This document shows, piece by piece, positions 17,203-55,117 of a DNA stretch of 64,000 nucleotides. Within the stretch, counting starts at the first letter, position 1; each line of letters starts with the position of its first letter. A program made the translations under genes and the position numbers. Below the pieces are notes generated by a model. The model made no database searches. It was not told the DNA's origin and saw only the letters and a list, made by a program, of their open reading frames with translations. The stretch comes from Candidatus Roizmanbacteria bacterium (lineage in GTDB: Bacteria > Patescibacteriota > Microgenomatia > UBA1406). The stretch covers positions 224,626 through 288,625 of the forward strand of contig JANLHL010000016.1 in NCBI GenBank assembly GCA_024654535.1. Reading direction: 5' to 3'.

Positions 17203-17363
17203 TGCGTCGATTTTTTCCCTTTATGGAAAATGATTGAGCCTTTTACCGAATCACGCCTTAGTGCTTTGTGAATATTGCCCACACCACGTTCTCCATTATA
17301 ATCTCTCAATGACCAAGCGGCTAAGATAATAGACGTAATAAAAATAACCCCAATAATAAACAT
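17181..17363 (-). CDS. Small membrane protein (60 aa), possibly translationally coupled
   Basis: The start overlaps the upstream stop as TAATG. It has an N-terminal TM helix (FIIGVIFITSIILAAW) and a basic tail. Confidence 0.35.
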   Translation of the reverse strand: MFIIGVIFITSIILAAWSLRDYNGERGVGNIHKALRRDSVKGSIIFHKGKKSTHYSSYSL

Positions 17364-18277
17364 TATCTATATATTGTACCAATTTTAGTATCGATATAAA
17401 AATCTATGATACCTCGAGAGTATGGGTCTGATTCATTCAGCTTTATAGAACAACCAAAATATCTCGCAAGAGAGCTAAATGTATTTTTGTGCTGAGATGC
17501 TCCAATGAGTATGCATGTATCGGGAGTGTGCTCGACCGTCTCTACATCTAATACCTTCATGCCTGCGCCCTCAATTATTCTCCCTATACGCGTACCTGCA
17601 CTATAGAGTTCTTGAGTTGTGTAGACATTCACCGCACCGTCGCTAGATGGATATGTCCAATACAAAAAACCTTTCACTGTTAAATCTAGTTTTTCTGCAC
17701 TGTAGCGCATCCCATTTTTTTTTGTCTGAACTAAACCAGTCGATCCATCAACAAATACTAATTTATCTTTCCGTGTCGCAAGGATGGAACGAAAAAAATA
17801 CCAATCTATCAAATTCCTTGTCGAAATTTTGTATTGTCTTGATAATGGTGCCAAAAACGAACGCCTCTTTGTTAGAAACCACTCTATAAATGGATCTGAT
17901 GATTCATCGATAATATCTGAATGAGTTGGCATAATTACGGCGTCAATGGGTGCTCCGACAAGCTCTTCAAAGGTATGACGAGCTATTACAAATCCTTTAT
18001 GTTCAATTTCTTCCAAGAGTGGCACACTATTTAAACTATACCACCCATACCCTCCTGGTACCGTCACTTGAGCACTGGTATTGAAGTAGATAACATTCGC
18101 GATGCTTGTTTTTTTGTCATAGGAAAGGACAAAAGCATGTGGTGCAAGCACCGCAATACTTATTCGGTTACGAGAAGAGAAAAATAACGATTGTCGTACT
18201 GTTTGAATAACGCCTAGCAATAAGACAAAGGCTAAAATTAAAAATAGAGGTACATAAGAAAACTTCGAACTTCGCAT
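17363..18277 (-). CDS. Membrane-anchored extracytoplasmic protein, divergent LytR-CpsA-Psr (LCP)-like
   Basis: N-terminal anchor and a weak LCP-like pattern (VTVPGGYGWYSLNS...ELVGAPIDAVIM). TATAAT lies 6 nt before the ATG. Confidence 0.3.
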   Translation of the reverse strand: MRSSKFSYVPLFLILAFVLLLGVIQTVRQSLFFSSRNRISIAVLAPHAFVLSYDKKTSIANVIYFNTSAQVTVPGGYGWYSLNSVPLLEEIEHKGFVIARHTFEELVGAPIDAVIMPTHSDIIDESSDPFIEWFLTKRRSFLAPLSRQYKISTRNLIDWYFFRSILATRKDKLVFVDGSTGLVQTKKNGMRYSAEKLDLTVKGFLYWTYPSSDGAVNVYTTQELYSAGTRIGRIIEGAGMKVLDVETVEHTPDTCILIGASQHKNTFSSLARYFGCSIKLNESDPYSRGIIDFYIDTKIGTIYR

Positions 18278-27640: not shown

Positions 27641-28288
27641 ATGGAAAAGAGAAAAAAATTGCTGAACACATTTGGCATTATTTTGCTGTTTCTTCTCCCT
27701 GCATTTCTCTTCCAGTGGGCCTATCAATCTGAAATACTCTCGGATATTGTGAAAGCAGTTCAGTCACACATAGCTCTCTACTTATTTATACTCACTCTAC
27801 TCAAAGGCTTTAGCATAGTCTATCCGCCAATGCCGGGAGTGGTTTTTACCATTGCGTCAATACCGCTTGTTGGCTGGAAACTCGCCTACAGTGCAGATAT
27901 TTTGGGTAGCTACTTTGGCGCTACCGTATCTTATTTTTTAGGAAAAAAGTACGGCTACACAATTCTTGAAAAAGTTATTGGGAGCGCGCTTGCAGATAAA
28001 ATAATTTCTATAAAATTAAAGCAAAAAAACCAAGTAGAAGCGGCTATATTTTTGCGCTTTGCAGCAGGTGGGCTTATATCAGACGGCCTTGCATGGGGAG
28101 CAAGCTTGATAGGGTTCAAATACATGTCATTTATTACAGGGTATCTCGTATCCCACATCCTTACTACTCTACCTGTCTTTTATCTCATATCTATTTCTAT
28201 ATCGTACCAGTCATGGGCTATCGGAGGTGTTGGTGTGGTTTTCGCTTGGCTGATTTTGTATAGATTTAAAGGTAGGTATTTCGAATAA
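27641..28288 (+). CDS. DedA/VTT-domain (SNARE-associated) membrane protein
   Basis: GSYFGATVSYFLGKKYGYTILEKV is the family signature. TATAAT lies 6 nt before the ATG. Confidence 0.6.
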   Translation: MEKRKKLLNTFGIILLFLLPAFLFQWAYQSEILSDIVKAVQSHIALYLFILTLLKGFSIVYPPMPGVVFTIASIPLVGWKLAYSADILGSYFGATVSYFLGKKYGYTILEKVIGSALADKIISIKLKQKNQVEAAIFLRFAAGGLISDGLAWGASLIGFKYMSFITGYLVSHILTTLPVFYLISISISYQSWAIGGVGVVFAWLILYRFKGRYFE

Positions 28289-33325: not shown

Positions 33326-34177
33326 ATGATTACCATAGGATTACTTCACTCTACTATTCGTGGAGACGAAAAACTTATTTTAGAGGCAGCAAAAAAGAGA
33401 AATGTTACCGTTAAGCTGATAGACATACGGCGCTCAATATACTGCGAAGAAAATCCATTGAATCATATAGATGTGGCTCTCGAACGCTCTGTCTCGACGG
33501 TGAAAGGTATGTATGCAGCATATTATTATGAAAGTAAAAATATTCCAGTCGTTAATTCGACTGCTGTCGCTGCCATCTGTGAAGATAAATTTCTTACATC
33601 GTTAGCACTTATGAAGGCACGTGTTCCCACCATTCCCTTTGGAATGGCTTTTTCAGTGGTAGAGCTGGAATCTTTAATAGCGTCTATCGGTGGGTACCCC
33701 GTTGTCATAAAACCACCTGAAGGCTCATGGGGCAGACTTTTGGCAAAAATTAACGACAAGGATGCACTTGAAGCTGTCATAGAACATAAAGATGTTCTTG
33801 GAACTCCAAGCCACAAAGCGTTTTATGTACAAAAGTACATTCAGAAAAAACAAGGCCGTGACATTCGTGCATTTGTTATAGATGGACATACAATTTGTGC
33901 TATATACAGACATTCTCCACACTGGATTACCAATACTGCGCGGGGCGGTGTAGCAAGCAATTGTACTGTGGATAGCGAGCTTGCAACCATCTGCAAAAAT
34001 GCTTCGATAGCGGTTGATGGTGGAATACTTGCTATGGATGTTGTTGAAACAAAAGACGGCTACATAATAAATGAAATCAATCACACCATGGAATTTAAAA
34101 ATTCTGAGATGCCGACAAAGACAAGTATTTCAGGTTATATTGTAGATTATTGTCTACAAATAGCACAGACCCAATGA
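33326..34177 (+). CDS. lysX: LysX-type ATP-grasp ligase (RimK family; substrate--LysW ligase)
   Basis: 283 aa, starting directly after the lysW stop. ATP-grasp blocks: GYPVVIKPPEGSWGR, RAFVIDG, MDVVETKDGYIINEINHTMEF. Confidence 0.8.
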   Translation: MITIGLLHSTIRGDEKLILEAAKKRNVTVKLIDIRRSIYCEENPLNHIDVALERSVSTVKGMYAAYYYESKNIPVVNSTAVAAICEDKFLTSLALMKARVPTIPFGMAFSVVELESLIASIGGYPVVIKPPEGSWGRLLAKINDKDALEAVIEHKDVLGTPSHKAFYVQKYIQKKQGRDIRAFVIDGHTICAIYRHSPHWITNTARGGVASNCTVDSELATICKNASIAVDGGILAMDVVETKDGYIINEINHTMEFKNSEMPTKTSISGYIVDYCLQIAQTQ

Positions 34178-35223
34178 AAAAAATATCTGTCGCAATTTTA
34201 GGAGGATCTGGATACGCAGGAGGTGAGCTCATACGCTTACTTTTAAACCATCCGAACGTATCACTCGAAGCGGTAACATCACGCGCATATAAGGGAAAAT
34301 TTGTATACAGCGCTCACCCAAATTTGCGTGGACGGACACGGCTCCAATTCATAGACCCACATGAACTTTCTAAATATGATCTTCTTTTTGTGGCACTTCC
34401 CAACGGTGTTTCTATGAACACGATGAGCGACTTAATGAAGAAGGCTTCCAAGATTATTGATCTTGGTGCAGATTTTCGCTTAAACAGTGCTCAGGCATTT
34501 ACCGATTGGTATCATATGCCACACACTGCGCCAAAACTTATGAAGGAGTTTATATATGGTGTTATTGAACTCCATAGATCGGAAATTGCAAAGAGTAACT
34601 ACGTAGCTTGCGGTGGTTGCGAAGCAACCGTAAGCATACTTTCACTCTATCCACTCATCAAACATAGTCTTATCGAGACTAAAATTATTATAGATGCCAA
34701 GATGAGCAGTTCACAAGCAGGGCTTGTTCCTACGCTCTCATCGCATCATCCAGAACGCTCTGGAGTTGTGCGCTCGTACATGCCAACTGGCCACCGACAC
34801 ACGGCAGAAATAATAACAGAAATGACACCGTATACCAGCGAGCCGCTTGATGTAGCAATATCAGCAACGAGTCTCGACATGGTACGAGGTATCTTAGTTA
34901 CTATTCATACTACCCCACGCACAGGTGTTTCGGAAAAAGATATTTGGCGAGCGTATAGAGAAGAATACGAGAACGAACCATTTATCCGAATAGTAAAAGA
35001 ACGCAGTGGATTATACCGCTATCCAGAACCAAAAATTCTCGCTGGGACCAATTTTTGTGATATTGGTTTTGAGATGGATACTCGATCAAAAAGACTTGTT
35101 GTCATTGGCGCAATAGATAACCTTGTGAAAGGTACCGCAGGACAGGCAATGCAGGATATGAACTGTATGTTTGGGTTCGAAGAAACGACAGGATTAGAAT
35201 TTTTAGGGCTCCATCCTATTTAA
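34174..35223 (+). CDS. lysY: LysY/ArgC-type [carrier]-acyl-phosphate reductase
   Basis: MKKISVAILGGSGYAGGELIRLL Rossmann fold and a catalytic Cys context (YVACGGCEAT). ATGA overlap with lysX. Confidence 0.8.
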   Translation: MKKISVAILGGSGYAGGELIRLLLNHPNVSLEAVTSRAYKGKFVYSAHPNLRGRTRLQFIDPHELSKYDLLFVALPNGVSMNTMSDLMKKASKIIDLGADFRLNSAQAFTDWYHMPHTAPKLMKEFIYGVIELHRSEIAKSNYVACGGCEATVSILSLYPLIKHSLIETKIIIDAKMSSSQAGLVPTLSSHHPERSGVVRSYMPTGHRHTAEIITEMTPYTSEPLDVAISATSLDMVRGILVTIHTTPRTGVSEKDIWRAYREEYENEPFIRIVKERSGLYRYPEPKILAGTNFCDIGFEMDTRSKRLVVIGAIDNLVKGTAGQAMQDMNCMFGFEETTGLEFLGLHPI

Positions 35224-35225
35224 CA

Positions 35226-36446
35226 ATGACAAAAGAACACAACTTCAAGGGGGTCATAGACACAACGCTCCGTGATGGCCAACAATCACCTCTCATGTTC
35301 GATACCTTTACGTATCGATTCGGACTTGACGATAAAATAAAAATTGTTGACGGCTTATTAGCGCTCGGTGTACAAAATATTGAATTCTTTTCTCCGGTTG
35401 TCAGTGAAACTGAAGGCAAAGATTTTGCTGTACTGAGACAGAGAATAAAATCAAATAATCCCAATGTACAGCTTCTCGCTCACTGTCGCACACACCCAAC
35501 AGATATAGAAAAAGCTCTTAATGCGGGGTTTGATGGTCTAAATTTATACATGGGTGTTTCACAAGAAGCACAACACCATAGTCATGGGTTAGCCATATCG
35601 GACATTGCACAGCGAGTACGAGATACTATCGAACCTCTGCGAAGGGCTAACCCAAACTTATATATTCGATTCAGCGGTGAAGATTGCTTTCGGACTGAAT
35701 TGAAAGATATATACAAAGTCTACGATGGTGTTTCAGATTTGGTCAATACATTCGGTATGCCAGACACTGTTGGAATTGCAACACCAGAACTTGTACGCAA
35801 AAGAGTCAACGCCCTTAGGAAAAGATACCCTGATATAGCTTTGGAATGCCATTTTCACAATGACCGTGGATATTCCCTGATGAATGCCGTTACTGCAGTA
35901 TTGTGTGGGGCGTCATATATCGACACATCAGTTTGGGGCTTGGCTGAACGATCTGGAATAACGTCAGTAACCGGCTTACTGTTTAATCTTTTCCAAGAAG
36001 ATCCAACACTTTGTGATGGATACAATATTGAAGTATGTTATCCGCTGAATGCGTTAATGGCAACCATGCTCGGTATGCAGGTACCATACACTGAACCGGT
36101 ATCATTAACCAATCGCACACATACGGCAGGGGTCCATACAAAAGCTGTATTAAATAGCGCAGGAACGTATGAAGCGATGGACTTAGCTCGATTTGGGGTA
36201 ACAACAAACCAATTACTACTTGGACCACTAAGTGGCTGGAATCTCATTTACTACTACCTTCGAGAAATCAAAGGATATGAACTCAGTAAAGAAGAAGCTC
36301 AGCAAATCTCAAGTGATTTTAAGAACCAAGCGGGAAGAATTGACAGAAGTCGCAGTCCTGAATTGGTATTAATGGACGTCATTGCCCCTTATCAGTTATC
36401 GAAAATCCCTACGCAAGATATGACGGGAAGAATTGAAAATCTATGA
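35226..36446 (+). CDS. DRE-TIM metallolyase, homocitrate/2-isopropylmalate synthase family
   Basis: IDTTLRDGQQSP, ECHFHNDRGYSLMN and the TSVWGLAERSG catalytic/metal blocks. No LeuA-type regulatory domain. Confidence 0.7.
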   Translation: MTKEHNFKGVIDTTLRDGQQSPLMFDTFTYRFGLDDKIKIVDGLLALGVQNIEFFSPVVSETEGKDFAVLRQRIKSNNPNVQLLAHCRTHPTDIEKALNAGFDGLNLYMGVSQEAQHHSHGLAISDIAQRVRDTIEPLRRANPNLYIRFSGEDCFRTELKDIYKVYDGVSDLVNTFGMPDTVGIATPELVRKRVNALRKRYPDIALECHFHNDRGYSLMNAVTAVLCGASYIDTSVWGLAERSGITSVTGLLFNLFQEDPTLCDGYNIEVCYPLNALMATMLGMQVPYTEPVSLTNRTHTAGVHTKAVLNSAGTYEAMDLARFGVTTNQLLLGPLSGWNLIYYYLREIKGYELSKEEAQQISSDFKNQAGRIDRSRSPELVLMDVIAPYQLSKIPTQDMTGRIENL

Positions 36447-37243
36447 TCATAATTAAAATTGGCGGCGGCAAAGACATCCGATGGGACTATATTGCCAAAA
36501 ATTTAAAAACATTTATAAAAAAACATACCTGTGTAATCATTCACGGTGCCAGCACACTGAGGGATTCTATTGGTCAAAAGATGAATGTGCCGACACAGAC
36601 AGTAATATCCCCTTCTGGTATAAGCAGCGTTATCACCGACGAGAGAGCACTCGAAGTATTTCTTATGGCATACGCAGGCGTTGCAAATAAAACGATTGTT
36701 GCACAACTTCTAAAACACTCTATTCCTGCAATTGGCATGACTGGAGTGGATGGTATGCTGTGGACTGCTCGAGCAAAGCCAAATCTGTTTGTAAAAGAAG
36801 GGGAAAAAACACGATTAGTACGAAATAATCTTACCGGGAGAGTTGAGAAAGTAAACACAGTTCTCCTCAATATCTTACTTAAAGGTGGATACATACCAGT
36901 AATAACCGCACCTGCAATCACCGAGTCTGGAACGATAGTAAATACAGACAACGATTGGGCAACGGCTATAACCGCAGCTGCACTAAAGGCAACATCTATT
37001 ATCTATCTTTTTGAAGCACCAGGACTACTGAAGGACTTTAATGATCCTTCCAGTATTATTCCACGCATACGTAAAAATGAATTACAGAGTTTCTTACCGA
37101 ATGCACAAGGTAGAATGAAAAAAAAACTTATTGGAGCTATGGAAGCTCTAAACAGAGGGGTTGAACACATATATTTTGGTGACGGGCGGATAGAAAATCC
37201 ATTAGATAGTGCCATCTTGGGGAATGGCACCGTTATTGCGTAA
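36443..37243 (+). CDS. lysZ: LysZ/ArgB-type amino-acid kinase
   Basis: MIIIKIGGG and HGAS are AAK family motifs. ATGA overlap with the upstream gene. Confidence 0.8.
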   Translation: MIIIKIGGGKDIRWDYIAKNLKTFIKKHTCVIIHGASTLRDSIGQKMNVPTQTVISPSGISSVITDERALEVFLMAYAGVANKTIVAQLLKHSIPAIGMTGVDGMLWTARAKPNLFVKEGEKTRLVRNNLTGRVEKVNTVLLNILLKGGYIPVITAPAITESGTIVNTDNDWATAITAAALKATSIIYLFEAPGLLKDFNDPSSIIPRIRKNELQSFLPNAQGRMKKKLIGAMEALNRGVEHIYFGDGRIENPLDSAILGNGTVIA

Positions 37244-37247
37244 CCAC

Positions 37248-38453
37248 ATGAACTACAAAACAATACAAGATAATTTTATAGCACAAACATATCCAAATCG
37301 GGGTGTTACTTTTGTACGAGGAAAGGGTTCATATCTCTTTGATGAAAATGGAGAAAAATACATCGATATGCTCGGTGGTAGCTATGGTGTGGGAGTTTTA
37401 GGATATGGAATTGGTTCAATTACGAAGGCACTACAGTCCCAAATAAATACTCTTTTTGTGTTGCATTCGTCATTTTCAAATGACAAACGTTCGCTTGCAA
37501 GTTTCAAACTTATACAGAATGTATCGAAAGCTGGTTTCACCAATTTAAAACGTGTTTTTTGGTCTAATTCTGGTGCAGAAAGCATTGAGGCTGCACTCAA
37601 GTTTGCAATGCTGTATACAAAAAAGTATAGGCTCATTGCAGCAATAAATAGCTATCATGGCAAAACACTTGGAGCACTGTCGATAAATAACTCAGGCAAC
37701 GGTAAATATCAAACACCATTTAAAAACGTACTACTGCCGGTTGATTGGATACGCTTCGGGGATATCCATTCATTAGAACAGGTCATTTCAACACATCATG
37801 CAGCAGTCATTCTGGAGCCAATTCAGGGTGAAGGAGGTGTTATTACTCCCCCACCAGACTACTTCCCAAAAGTCTATACGTTATGCAAAAAATACAATGT
37901 GCCACTTATTATCGATGAAATTCAAACCGGTTTAGGCAGAACCGGTACTATGTACAATAGTCAACGATACATACAAAATGGCTTTACTTGCGATATGCTC
38001 TGCCTCGGAAAAGGCCTTGCCTATGGTATTCCTGTAGGAGCAACGGTTATTTCAGATCGCATAAACAGTGCCCTTTCAAAAGGTATTCATACCAGCACGT
38101 TTGGAGCAAATCCTCTTGCAATGACTGGAGTTTACGAAGTACTGTCGTACTTAGAGACTCATCCGCGTCTTGTGACAAACGCCACCGCAAAAGGCGCCTA
38201 TATTCGTAATAATCTTGAGACTCTCAAAAAAAGATATCCCACCATTACCGATATTTCTGGAACAGGCTTGATGATTGGCATTGGGCTTTCTATAGATCCG
38301 ATAATAGTACTTAAAAAACTACAAGAACAACACATTATAGCTGCACCGACCAGTACAAACCGCATTCGTTTCTTACCGGCGCTCACCATTCAAAAAAAAG
38401 ATATAGATAGTACACTTGATGCATTTTCAATAGTACTCAGTTCGTACAAATAA
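37248..38453 (+). CDS. lysJ: LysJ/ArgD-type class III PLP aminotransferase
   Basis: SGAESIEAALK and DEIQTGLGRTG, with a CLGKGL PLP-lysine context. Confidence 0.8.
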   Translation: MNYKTIQDNFIAQTYPNRGVTFVRGKGSYLFDENGEKYIDMLGGSYGVGVLGYGIGSITKALQSQINTLFVLHSSFSNDKRSLASFKLIQNVSKAGFTNLKRVFWSNSGAESIEAALKFAMLYTKKYRLIAAINSYHGKTLGALSINNSGNGKYQTPFKNVLLPVDWIRFGDIHSLEQVISTHHAAVILEPIQGEGGVITPPPDYFPKVYTLCKKYNVPLIIDEIQTGLGRTGTMYNSQRYIQNGFTCDMLCLGKGLAYGIPVGATVISDRINSALSKGIHTSTFGANPLAMTGVYEVLSYLETHPRLVTNATAKGAYIRNNLETLKKRYPTITDISGTGLMIGIGLSIDPIIVLKKLQEQHIIAAPTSTNRIRFLPALTIQKKDIDSTLDAFSIVLSSYK

Positions 38454-40906: not shown

Positions 40907-42538
40907 TTACACTATCACTGGTATGATGAGTGGGCTTCGTGCGTGCTGCGCACTAATAAAACCACCTATTTCCTGAACTATTCTATTCTCAAGCTTTTGC
41001 TTATCCGTTGTTTGTTTCAACATCGATTCTACCTTTGGTATGATGTCTCCAAAAAGTTTTCTGTCATTAAACATGAAACCTTTTGAGTCCAAGCTCACTT
41101 TTCCGTTGCTTACCAGTACTACCAAAATGCCTTCTTTACCCAAACTTTCCCGCTCTTCCAATATCCTATCACCGACATCTCCTACAGAAGAACCGTCGAC
41201 AAGAATTTCTTTCAATATAATTTTTTCTTCCATACTGATGCCTGCATGTGTTACTGCAATAGGTTGACCACTATGTAACATATGCAACTGACTATCTTGA
41301 TAACCTAGTTTTTTCATAAGATTCATATACGCCTTACTATGTTTTATCGTTGTACCGATTGGCATAAGATTCTTTGCGCCTACCAAACGTGCCAGCAATT
41401 TCAAATCTCCCTGCGATCCATGTCCAGATGTATGTAGCGCGTCTCGTATAGCAGTGTATATGACGTCAGCACCTTGTTCTATTAAGTTCTCTATTACATC
41501 TTGTATGTGCATCTCGTTGCCCGGTATGGGGTCTGATGAGAAAAATATACGATCACCCTTCTGCACTTTTATAAAACGGTTTCTCCCAGTCGATACTTTA
41601 TCGAGTGCAGATCCAAATTCGCCCTGAGAACCAGTCAGTATGACACAGACAGCATTTGGTCTCATTTTTTTCAAATCTTGCTCGGGAATAAGATGATCTT
41701 TCTTCAGTGGCAAATACCCTTCTTCTATTGCAATAGCTGTGTTTCGCTTCATAGAACTACCAACAAAACAAATTTTTCTATTAAATTCAAGCGCGCTTGT
41801 GACACACTGACGTATACGCGAAATATTAGATGCAAAGGTCGTCATGAAAAATCTGCCTTTTGTTTCGAGCATTTCCCTTCGAAAGGTTGTTCCTACTATC
41901 TGTTCTGACAATGTGTATCCTTCACGTTCCGAACCGAGTCCATCAGATAACAAAAGATCAATCCCTTGCCCTCCTGCTCGTACAATTTCTGCAAAATCCG
42001 GTGGATCAGCGTTCACTGGCGTTAGATCCATTTTAAAATCAGAGCCATGGTAAACACGTGCTGAAGGGGTATCAATCACTATATGTGTTGTATCAGGTAT
42101 AGAATGTGTCATGTGAATATATCTGGCCTTAATAGAGCCAAAAATATAATCGTATCGGTGTTTAATAAACACAATTTTTGCAGAAGTGATATTCTCTTGT
42201 TCTAGTTTTTCTTTTATAAGAAGCCCAGCTAATTTTGGCGCAAATATAGGAGGAAATCCCAATTTTTCAATGACATAAGGAATAGCTCCGATATGATCTT
42301 CATGACCATGCGTAATAAGAAGAGCTCTAATAAGGTGTTTTTTATCGAGTAAATAGGATACATCAGGGATTGCCGAATCGACACCGAGCGATTCTAGATG
42401 AGACAAGAACCCAACGCCACAATCGATAATTACAATATCTGCAATGACCCCATTTTTCCAGTACTCGTACACATACATATTCTTCGTAACATCTTCGAGC
42501 CCACCTAATGGAACGATTCTTAATTTATCAGTATTCAT
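40907..42538 (-). CDS. rnj: Ribonuclease J (beta-CASP metallo-beta-lactamase)
   Basis: LITHGHEDHIGAIPY with beta-CASP and C-terminal domains; 543 aa. Confidence 0.9.
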   Translation of the reverse strand: MNTDKLRIVPLGGLEDVTKNMYVYEYWKNGVIADIVIIDCGVGFLSHLESLGVDSAIPDVSYLLDKKHLIRALLITHGHEDHIGAIPYVIEKLGFPPIFAPKLAGLLIKEKLEQENITSAKIVFIKHRYDYIFGSIKARYIHMTHSIPDTTHIVIDTPSARVYHGSDFKMDLTPVNADPPDFAEIVRAGGQGIDLLLSDGLGSEREGYTLSEQIVGTTFRREMLETKGRFFMTTFASNISRIRQCVTSALEFNRKICFVGSSMKRNTAIAIEEGYLPLKKDHLIPEQDLKKMRPNAVCVILTGSQGEFGSALDKVSTGRNRFIKVQKGDRIFFSSDPIPGNEMHIQDVIENLIEQGADVIYTAIRDALHTSGHGSQGDLKLLARLVGAKNLMPIGTTIKHSKAYMNLMKKLGYQDSQLHMLHSGQPIAVTHAGISMEEKIILKEILVDGSSVGDVGDRILEERESLGKEGILVVLVSNGKVSLDSKGFMFNDRKLFGDIIPKVESMLKQTTDKQKLENRIVQEIGGFISAQHARSPLIIPVIV

Positions 42539-42545
42539 ATATATA

Positions 42546-43241
42546 CTATACTATTTTTTCCATTGCTTTCGCAATTTTATCAAAATCACCCATAATTACC
42601 TTTTCTATATTATGAAAGCTCTTATTTACTCTGTGGTCTGTAATACGGTCTTGCGGAAAATTATAGGTACGAATTTTTTCAGCACGCATGCCACCGCCCG
42701 CTTGATCCATAAAAAACGATTCAATACCTCGCTTCTTATCGTCATCAAGTTGTTTAAGCCTCCCTGCTAATAGCGCTAATGCAATTTGCCTATTTTGAAG
42801 CTGCTGACGCTCTTGAGAGGCTGTCACAACAAGCCCTGTTGGCTTATGAGTAAGTCGAACAGCCGTCGAGACTTTGTTGACATTCTGACCTCCATGACCG
42901 CCACTTCTAAAAAACTGCCATTCCAAATCTGAAGGACTTACATGAATCTCTTGTTGTGGAATTTCAGGAGTCACTAAAACGGTAGCAATAGATGTATGAA
43001 TGCGGCCATAACGCTCAGTATTGGGAACCCGTTGTACTCTATGCGCACCCGTTTCATTTTTCAAAATAGTATAGGCACGAGGACCTCGGATTCTGAGAAC
43101 ACCAGCATCAATGTTTTGTACGCGCCACTGAATCTTTTGTGCAAATTTTGCATACATACCCAATAAATTTTCGGCCCATATTTTCGCTTCATCCCCACCA
43201 ACCCCAGCGCGTACTTCTAAGTAACAAATATCTGAATTCAT
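42546..43241 (-). CDS. prfA: Peptide chain release factor, RF1-like, lacking domain 1
   Basis: GGQ motif ([13 protein letters not shown]) and a codon-reading loop [18 protein letters not shown] (PxT type). The protein is 231 aa and begins at the position equivalent to E. coli RF1 residue ~105 ([13 protein letters not shown]). Confidence 0.8.
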
Positions 43242-43250
43242 ACGTATTTT

Positions 43251-43538
43251 TTATGCTTCTGCAAGAAGATCTTTGAGTGTTCTAGTCCGCTCTCTTGACT
43301 TCTGCACATGCTCTTTCTTCTTCACAGACATAGACACTGCTTTCTTCTGGCGAGTCTTAAACTTTTCTACCTGACCTTTTGTATCAATAAGTCTATCTTC
43401 ACCAGTATAGAGCGGATGACATTTGAAACATATCTCAACATGAATTTCCTTTTTCGTTGAGCCGACTGTGAATACATTACCACAGCCACACGTAACTTTC
43501 GCATCACTGAAATACTGTGGATGAATTTTCGCTTTCAT
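43251..43538 (-). CDS. rpmE: Ribosomal protein L31 with C-terminal basic extension
   Basis: MKAKIHPQY...CGCGN...CFKCHPLYTG. TATAAT lies 6 nt before the ATG. Confidence 0.9.
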   Translation of the reverse strand: MKAKIHPQYFSDAKVTCGCGNVFTVGSTKKEIHVEICFKCHPLYTGEDRLIDTKGQVEKFKTRQKKAVSMSVKKKEHVQKSRERTRTLKDLLAEA

Positions 43539-43608
43539 TGCACTATTATAGTAAAAATGTTACTGAATAGCAATGGAGATTCCGTCTACCAAATCCATAT
43601 ACCATTCA

Positions 43609-54802: not shown

Positions 54803-55117
54803 CTAGACAATTCCTAGTTTTACCCTTGCGTCATCACTGAGCATTTCCATAGACCACGGAGGATCAAATACTAAGTTTGGTAATACTTTTTTTACCCATG
54901 ACAACTCTTGTACTTTTTCAATAATTTGCTGCTCAATAAGAGAATAAAGCGGACACCCTATGGTGGTAAGCGTCATCGTTACGTTCACACTGCCGTTCTT
55001 TTCTGAAACACTGTAGATGAGCCCCATGTCGGTAAGCGGGATATAGAGTTCAGGATCAAGGATTTCTGCCAACTTCCTCCACACTTCTTTTTCTCGAGGC
55101 GTTTTCACTTTTTCCAT
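54803..55117 (-). CDS. DUF59/MIP18-family (SufT/PaaD-like) Fe-S assembly protein
   Basis: LDPELYIPLTDMGLIYSV...TLTTIGCPL. Confidence 0.75.
   Translation of the reverse strand: MEKVKTPREKEVWRKLAEILDPELYIPLTDMGLIYSVSEKNGSVNVTMTLTTIGCPLYSLIEQQIIEKVQELSWVKKVLPNLVFDPPWSMEMLSDDARVKLGIV

Follow-up and report, generated by a model that had tools for sequence, protein, structure and literature searches.

To our knowledge, all characterised housekeeping release factors RF1 and RF2 of bacteria and organelles carry domain 1, and the role of this domain (contact with uL11 and RF3-driven recycling) has been probed only by laboratory deletions. Here we describe a prfA gene whose product begins at domain 2. 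It lies in a stretch of 64,000 nt, hereafter the window (contig JANLHL010000016.1, positions 224,626 to 288,625 of the forward strand), from Candidatus Roizmanbacteria bacterium, a member of the Microgenomates within the candidate phyla radiation (CPR, or Patescibacteria). On the sequence and structure comparisons presented below, we consider it probable, at roughly 80%, that this domain-1-less protein is the housekeeping RF1 of the bacterium.

The closest described system is the canonical RF1 (NCBIfam models TIGR00019 and NF001859; structures 1RQ0 of Thermotoga maritima and 2B3T and 5J30 of Escherichia coli), with which the short protein shares domains 2-4, the PxT and GGQ loops and, as predicted, the compact free-state fold (TM 0.80 to 1rq0_A); its rpmE linkage is that of other CPR RF1s. 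It differs from the canonical factor by a 10-residue deletion in domain 2, by a score below the family cut-off and by the absence of domain 1, a three-helix bundle of ~105 aa that contacts uL11 and RF3. Helices α2 and α3 of this bundle touch uL11, at its N-terminal domain, and RF3, at its domain 3 (PMC3677378). As summarised in PMC1586002 from Mora et al. 2003, codon-specific release does not require domain 1, whereas RF3 action and recycling do, and an N-terminally truncated RF1 is functional in vivo. The same paper notes that prfC is dispensable and that none was then known from small genomes. The engineered N-truncated E. coli RF1 and RF2 thus described have the same architecture as the short RF1 and keep codon-specific release while losing RF3 stimulation, but they are laboratory deletions, made in an RF3-containing host and reported to slow its growth (PMC1586002), whereas the short RF1 is natural, fixed in a clade and under purifying selection. 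PrfH (RFH) also lacks domain 1 and has a domain-2-like module with a GGQ motif (PMC1586002, PMC6514570). The "anticodon" region of PrfH is altered, its occurrence is sporadic and RtcB always accompanies it, whereas the short RF1 keeps the RF1 signature and has no adjacent RtcB gene.

Release factor genes can carry a stop codon that is read by their own product. The prfB gene is autoregulated by a +1 frameshift at UGA-C, and a hemA-UAG-prfA reinitiation model has reportedly been proposed for Salmonella (Elliott 1989). In these devices the factor-read stop lies just upstream of, or within, the gene of the factor, as it does at the short RF1, and an enrichment of UAG-C at the end of rpmE before prfA in other CPR resembles the same logic. 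Unlike in those devices, the stop upstream of the gene in the window is UAA-A, which is not RF1-specific, and any regulatory effect there is hypothetical.

Architecture of the short RF1

The prfA gene (42546-43241, minus strand, as are the rpmE, spacer, promoter-like and rnj features detailed below) has an ATG start and a TAG stop (42546-42548) and encodes 231 aa that comprise domains 2, 3 and 4 only. The Pfam RF-1 profile (PF00472) was matched at positions 3-116 of 116 (117.2 bits), whereas PCRF was matched only at profile positions 101-194 of 194. When aligned with solved structures, residues 6-224 corresponded to residues 111-341 of E. coli RF1 and residues 3-225 to residues 85-318 of T. 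maritima RF1. The stop-codon "anticodon" of RF1, of the PxT type, is represented by a PNT tripeptide (residues 73-75; 43017-43025), and the catalytic GGQ motif is at residues 117-119 (42885-42893), with G117, G118 and Q119 being invariant. An in-frame stop, that of the upstream rpmE gene, is located 9 nt before the start codon, and there is therefore no room for domain 1. No further release-factor-like sequence was detected by tblastn over the 64-kb window. A first-pass annotation, made from the letters of this DNA, had described a 231-aa release factor frame with GGQ and PxT loops and without domain 1, the only one present, that starts 9 nt behind the L31 stop in the same frame; the open reading frame (ORF), the profile matches, the structure alignment and the coordinates bore out all of this.

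The AlphaFold2 model of the protein (predicted local distance difference test score 81.4, predicted template modelling score 0.77) begins directly at the first β-strand of domain 2. Its best full-fold match in Foldseek was the free RF1 1rq0_A, with a root mean square deviation of 3.5 Å, and at the level of the model the fold of domains 2-4 is shown to be retained. Within domain 2, a deletion of ~10 residues was observed at residues ~43-47 (window ~43100-43115), between the α-helix and the next strands; it is common to most CPR RF1s, with or without domain 1.

Assignment of the protein to RF1

Two NCBIfam prfA models gave scores below their cut-offs, namely 276.6 bits against 400 for NF001859 and 269.4 bits against 423.25 for TIGR00019. 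Both align to the short protein only from position 106/112 onward, and the scores fall short because domain 1 is missing. The other families were more distant: the RF2 model TIGR00020 scored 196.2 against a cut-off of 370 and the motif is PNT rather than the SPF of RF2; the PrfH model TIGR03072 scored 67.7 against 166.65 and matched residues 96-170 alone; and the ArfB model matched residues 97-132 alone, in a protein that possesses the domains 2 and 4 foreign to ArfB/ICT1. The complete PCRF region with domain 1, one of the marks of RF1 membership, was absent, as was a score above the equivalog cut-off. The remaining sequence marks were found, i.e., the GGQ domain, the P-x-T motif with its flanks (RVQRVPxTE..GRIHTS) and an orthologous position linked to rpmE.

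Residues P73, T75, E76, G79, R80, H82, T83 and S84 and the GGQ loop were invariant in 46 short homologues. The P-x-T motif was present in all 81 CPR release factors examined (in one of them as P-x-S) and SPF in none, and GHGGQNVN was conserved in 80 of the 81. The genes that surround prfA encode bL31, HtrA, CtpA and RNase J; RtcB is not among them, and the view of the first-pass annotation that the gene is not a PrfH-type paralogue agrees with this and with the PrfH score. At the level of sequence, these comparisons showed that the short protein holds every determinant of RF1 and none of RF2 or PrfH; by the same standard it is an RF1 orthologue, which departs from the family in two formal respects solely for the missing domain 1.

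Distribution, selection and stepwise reduction of domain 1

The genome scan covered one genome per species with six 8-residue query peptides, and the 80 best loci (L001-L080) were retained; their range extends to a WOR-3 RF1 of canonical type at 50% identity. A short release factor ORF (227-256 aa) preceded a few codons upstream by an in-frame stop was found in 37 of the 80 species-representative loci, and a further one, L028, probably encodes a short RF1 too. About 40 of the 80 loci encode an RF1 of 288-326 aa, and three encode one of 342-352 aa. The nearest named genome is a Roizmanbacteria metagenome-assembled genome, whose factor is 71% identical. The order CtpA, HtrA, bL31, RF1, RNase J was found with a 94%-identical RF1 in four contigs from different samples, and five further metagenome relatives (66-91% identity) all have a short RF1 in the same arrangement (5/5). 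Between the window and the 94%-identical relative, the proportions of non-synonymous and synonymous differences (pN and pS) were 0.042 and 0.70, with a dN/dS of 0.022; hence the short RF1 is under strong purifying selection. The proposal of a naturally minimal RF1 is sustained by this value and by the recurrence of the truncation in 37 other species-level genomes and in metagenome contigs.

An exhaustive HMMER search of 1.84 billion representative sequences yielded 16,864 release-factor-family proteins. Among the best 150 of these, complete short forms were labelled as Patescibacteria (including Amesbacteria) or were unnamed, as exemplified by UniRef A0A0G1SLA7 (256 aa) and by a 269-aa "PCRF domain-containing protein"; short hits that cluster with a member of 347-359 aa are fragments. 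The two best hits (P0121 and P0126; 477 and 481 aa) carry an exact internal tandem duplication of ~120-130 residues and were set aside as probable assembly artefacts in public data. A word-indexed protein search returned uniform lengths of 218-239 aa, which are not independent evidence of a short RF1, as that search seems to favour targets near the length of the query (a 76-aa query returned fragments of 87-133 aa only).

The length of the segment that precedes domain 2 falls into steps. There are ~105-110 residues in three loci, L021, L074 (Patescibacteria-type) and L072 (labelled WOR-3), ~60 residues, i.e., a two-helix remnant, in most CPR, and none in the clade of the window. The coverage of the PCRF profile shrinks in parallel, from 16-194 (342 aa, L021) to 45-194 (296 aa, L059) and 101-194 (231 aa, the window). 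In a neighbour-joining tree of domains 2-4 the short forms made up one large clade, nested among the longer CPR RF1s, and additional independent truncations (230 aa and ~255 aa) were placed in a sister clade beside forms of 298-342 aa. As judged from the sequences, the loss of domain 1 is thus shown to be the end point of a stepwise reduction in CPR, from ~345 to ~300 to ~230 aa. A hidden Markov model profile of the CPR domain 1 matched solely the N-termini of longer RF1 genes; it revealed a separate domain-1 ORF neither in the window nor at any of the short-RF loci.

Stop codon usage and RF2

The 63 ORFs of the window end in TAA (39), TGA (14, 22%) or TAG (10), and those that end in TGA include full-length homologues of CarB and LysX; in the short-RF loci, TGA ends 20% of the ORFs. 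Since UGA is used as a stop, the genome must carry an RF2 gene outside the window. No RF2 was found in the 64-kb window by tblastn, and none in the 80 CPR genome loci. A scan of metagenomes with a DNA pattern for SPFD..RRHTSF gave 120 RF2 loci, and all those with an intact 5' side (105/105) have 181 codons or more ahead of SPF, which means that domain 1 is present; a CPR origin could be demonstrated for none of the 120. Of these loci, L115 is gammaproteobacterium-like, L145 Bacteroidota-like and L150 without assignment. A synthetic 76-aa query built on the RF2 motif returned, as noted above, only fragments. Exact matching of the proteins at the ends of the window retrieved no record by which it could be extended.

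Expression of the rpmE-prfA unit

The first cistron, rpmE (43251-43538), encodes a 95-aa bL31 of the Zn-ribbon type (Pfam L31; NCBIfam L31 above cut-off) and ends in TAA (43251-43253). It is followed by the 9-nt spacer AAAATACGT (43242-43250), which is in frame, A-rich and without a stop codon or a Shine-Dalgarno (SD) sequence, and then by prfA. The next gene, rnj (40907-42538; Pfam RNase_J_b_CASP and RNase_J_C), encodes RNase J and begins 7 nt past the RF1 stop; in relatives this junction shows gaps of 1-9 nt or a short overlap. The strand's best promoter-like site, TTGCTA-17-TATAAT (43545-43573; 10 of 12 matches), has its -10 hexamer ending 6 nt before the bL31 ATG, and a -10-like hexamer is located 6-7 nt before the bL31 ATG in 8 of 8 members of the subclade. 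The position of this hexamer would imply that the rpmE-prfA mRNA is leaderless. A second promoter-like site, TTGCGA-18-TATAGT (42545-42574; 9/12, a consensus match only), falls within prfA near its 3' terminus and ends 6 nt ahead of the RNase J start codon, so that RNase J may have its own leaderless start.

At the RF1 start, SD pairing was estimated at -0.7 kcal/mol and no promoter-like site was found. The first-pass annotation had stressed the lack of a promoter and an SD; this is true for RF1, but it is not distinctive, because just ~8% of 47 window genes show SD-like pairing (-4.5 kcal/mol or better against the anti-SD) and a TATAAT-like hexamer lies 5-9 nt upstream of 17 of 46 ATG starts, as compared with 4.9% of background ATGs. 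Examples of the leaderless signature in the window are found at 43545-43573, 17363-18277, 27641-28288 and 54803-55117. The RF1 start region is A-rich, the junction RNA was less structured than 196 of 200 shuffles (z = +1.82), and Rfam contained no known RNA element that matched the rpmE-prfA junction.

RF1 would then be translated as the second product of a leaderless rpmE-prfA(-rnj) mRNA, almost no use being made of SD sequences in this genome, and initiation on the unstructured A-rich start 9 nt past the bL31 stop would most likely fall to ribosomes coming straight from termination at bL31. Such a reinitiation is plausible, as had been suggested, yet generic rather than a special dependence, since internal cistrons of the window mostly overlap or sit within a few nt of each other.

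The rpmE-prfA junction in other CPR

The Pfam L31 profile covers residues 1-63 of bL31, and the remaining ~32 residues (64-95; 43254-43349) are a basic C-terminal extension of CPR type that ends in a conserved T/S-L-K/R-D/E-L/M-L motif. An unusual extension had been pointed out here; it is present, but it is not peculiar to this locus, as bL31 measures 95-115 aa (median 99) in nearly all CPR loci examined, and a larger bL31 in CPR has been described (PMC9297842). The lysine/arginine-rich tails end in (P)x(S/T)L(K/R)(D/E)(L/M)L, a motif that is not discussed in PMC9297842. The idea that the tail is a former piece of RF1 domain 1 was ruled out, given that it coexists with a full-length RF1 in L021.

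The bL31 and RF1 genes of the window share one frame, with 297 nt from start to start. In the subclade, the spacers measure 9, 12, 9, 7, 6, 3, 3 and 6 nt (window; L081, L205-L209, L001), and 7 of 8 members maintain one frame although their spacer length varies over 3, 6, 9 and 12 nt; the bL31 stop is TAA in 7/8 and TGA in 1/8, and the TGA member, with the 7-nt spacer, is also the one out of frame. Of the two features that the first-pass annotation had proposed to survey in relatives, the truncation recurs, whereas the rpmE-TAA-N9-ATG junction varies in spacer and stop. When all tight junctions were considered, 19 of 29 were in frame and 18 of 29 had no intervening stop (nominal binomial P ~5e-4), a statistic that ignores kinship and depends partly on the start codon chosen. 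In other short-RF lineages the two genes overlap (-8, -11, -17) or are spaced out of frame, and in a Woesebacteria-type subclade the order is hisS-prfA-rpmE-rplJ, with RF1 upstream of rpmE. One such region, L004:3494-7855, encodes HtrA, HisRS, a short RF1, bL31 and uL10, so that a stalk-protein gene adjoins the RF1-rpmE pair.

Both RF1 and RF2 recognise UAA, whereas UAG is RF1-specific. In the short-RF loci the bL31 stop was TAA in 13 of 17. In CPR with a ~300-aa RF1 (L023-L080), it was TAG in 29 of 38 loci against a background of 22%, and C came directly after this TAG in 19 of 29 cases as compared with 19 of 90 other TAG stops, kinship being ignored in both counts; TGA was found in none of the 55 genome loci with rpmE upstream of prfA. 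In loci with spacers of 40-130 nt, the bL31 frame ran on without a stop until 20 nt or less from the RF1 start, or past it, in 15 of 23 cases (e.g., L045, L050, L067 and L071), as compared with 9 and 7 of 23 for the other two frames and 7.7 predicted from shuffles (P ~5e-4, kinship ignored). This open frame suggests a readthrough extension of bL31 that would end at the prfA start, and the frequent in-frame junctions together with the UAG, UAG-C and open-frame biases give a hint of a putative RF1-sensing readthrough device in other CPR lineages.

A further feature of the window is a putative cluster for lysine or arginine biosynthesis of the LysW/LysX (amino-group carrier protein) type at 33326-38453, with RimK/LysX, semialdehyde dehydrogenase, homocitrate-synthase-like, amino-acid kinase and aminotransferase genes (assigned by Pfam via the syntenic locus L081). 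CPR genomes are usually without amino-acid biosynthesis, and such a cluster was thus unexpected.

Discussion

The short RF1 is proposed to terminate translation at UAA and UAG without contacts to uL11 or RF3. Domains 2 and 4 would read both codons in the decoding centre by means of the PNT loop, the conserved Q70 and the I81-H82-T83 pocket, and domain 3 would set the GGQ motif in the peptidyl-transferase centre. As the contacts of domain 1 with the uL11 N-terminal domain and with RF3 would be impossible for such a protein, it would leave the ribosome spontaneously or through other factors, and termination would be RF3-independent.

Several points weigh against the assignment as housekeeping RF1. 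The protein scores under the NCBIfam RF1 equivalog cut-off; its relatives are all metagenome-assembled; the view on a second prfA and on prfB, prfC, prmC and uL11 covers only 64 kb of this genome; and we infer activity, codon specificity and RF3 independence from conserved features. As for its expression, the coupling to bL31 is deduced solely from spacing and missing signals, and a sister subclade places the short RF1 behind hisS. The first and third of these points would also suit a specialised rescue or quality-control paralogue of the PrfH kind, with the true full-length RF1 encoded elsewhere, all the more so because domain-1-less paralogues exist (PrfH; PMC1586002). We nevertheless regard a paralogue as very unlikely: unlike in PrfH, the codon-recognition residues of RF1 are all invariant; the PrfH model is far from its cut-off and RtcB is absent among the neighbours; the gene occupies the rpmE-linked slot in which other CPR hold an RF1 of 300-345 aa, and is nested among these in the tree; and none of the 37 short-RF1 assemblies among the 80 best genome hits yielded a second RF1 locus, a negative that covers RF1s with one of the six query peptides, in practice HGGQNVNK. 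An artificial or recent loss of ~330 nt of prfA by assembly error, frameshift or pseudogene formation has nothing in its favour besides the unusual length, and its chance is negligible in view of the identical architecture across dozens of independent assemblies and samples, the dN/dS value and the presence of bL31 in the upstream space.

With the short protein taken as RF1, the question of how the junction with rpmE works can be considered. An autoregulatory loop in which RF1-mediated termination at the bL31 UAA controls RF1 synthesis, as the first-pass annotation had supposed, would fit the 9-nt coupling, the lack of an own promoter or SD and, in the CPR with a ~300-aa RF1, the UAG, UAG-C and open-frame biases. 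For the window, it is not supported and is quite unlikely: the stop, UAA-A, can be read by RF2 too, and TAA prevails in the short-RF loci; one close relative has UGA, out of frame; a sister subclade has the order prfA-rpmE; dependence on termination would yield positive rather than homeostatic feedback; and tight coupling is normal for internal cistrons in this SD-poor genome. It is highly improbable, too, that the function of domain 1 is provided by a separate polypeptide from a split gene, or by a readthrough bL31-RF1 fusion with the basic helical tail as a substitute. A fusion would accord with the shared frame without an intervening stop here, in 7 of 8 subclade members and in 18 of 29 tight junctions, but that statistic ignores shared ancestry and leans partly on the choice of start codon, and frame exceptions are found at 7, 16, 10 and 4 nt and at the overlaps. 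In addition, the domain-1 profile disclosed such an ORF neither in the window nor at any of the short-RF loci, prfA is upstream of rpmE in one subclade, and the bL31 tail is equally present in CPR that keep domain 1.

A broader and doubtful scenario would join these observations. CPR would have dismantled domain 1 of RF1 stepwise, and fully in the Microgenomates clade, within a remodelled, RF3-free termination, and the level of RF1 may be sensed at the rpmE-prfA junction. In many CPR, bL31 would end in a weak, RF1-specific UAG-C with a frame free of stops as far as the RF1 start or past it, and a shortage of RF1 would lead readthrough ribosomes to prfA or give rise to a bL31-RF1 fusion; the in-frame 3n spacers in the subclade of the window might then be a remnant or a variant of this device.

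In the literature searched, PMC6514570, PMC9297842 and PMC11665869 included, a CPR RF1 without domain 1 was nowhere described. The short sequences have been public since 2015 as "peptide chain release factor 1" or "PCRF domain-containing protein", and the relatives of the present protein bear only the latter name at NCBI. Because the annotation of the short RF1 is sub-threshold, surveys could wrongly call prfA missing; a missing prfA is a usual cue for UAG reassignment. The 231-aa factor offers a compact scaffold for structural and synthetic-biology work. For the biology of the group, a clade that lives on a domain-1-less RF1, together with the intermediates that surround it, would be a natural test of which parts of the termination machinery are dispensable, and may show what must co-vary with the loss of domain 1, namely RF3, the uL11 N-terminal domain, bL12 and PrmC.

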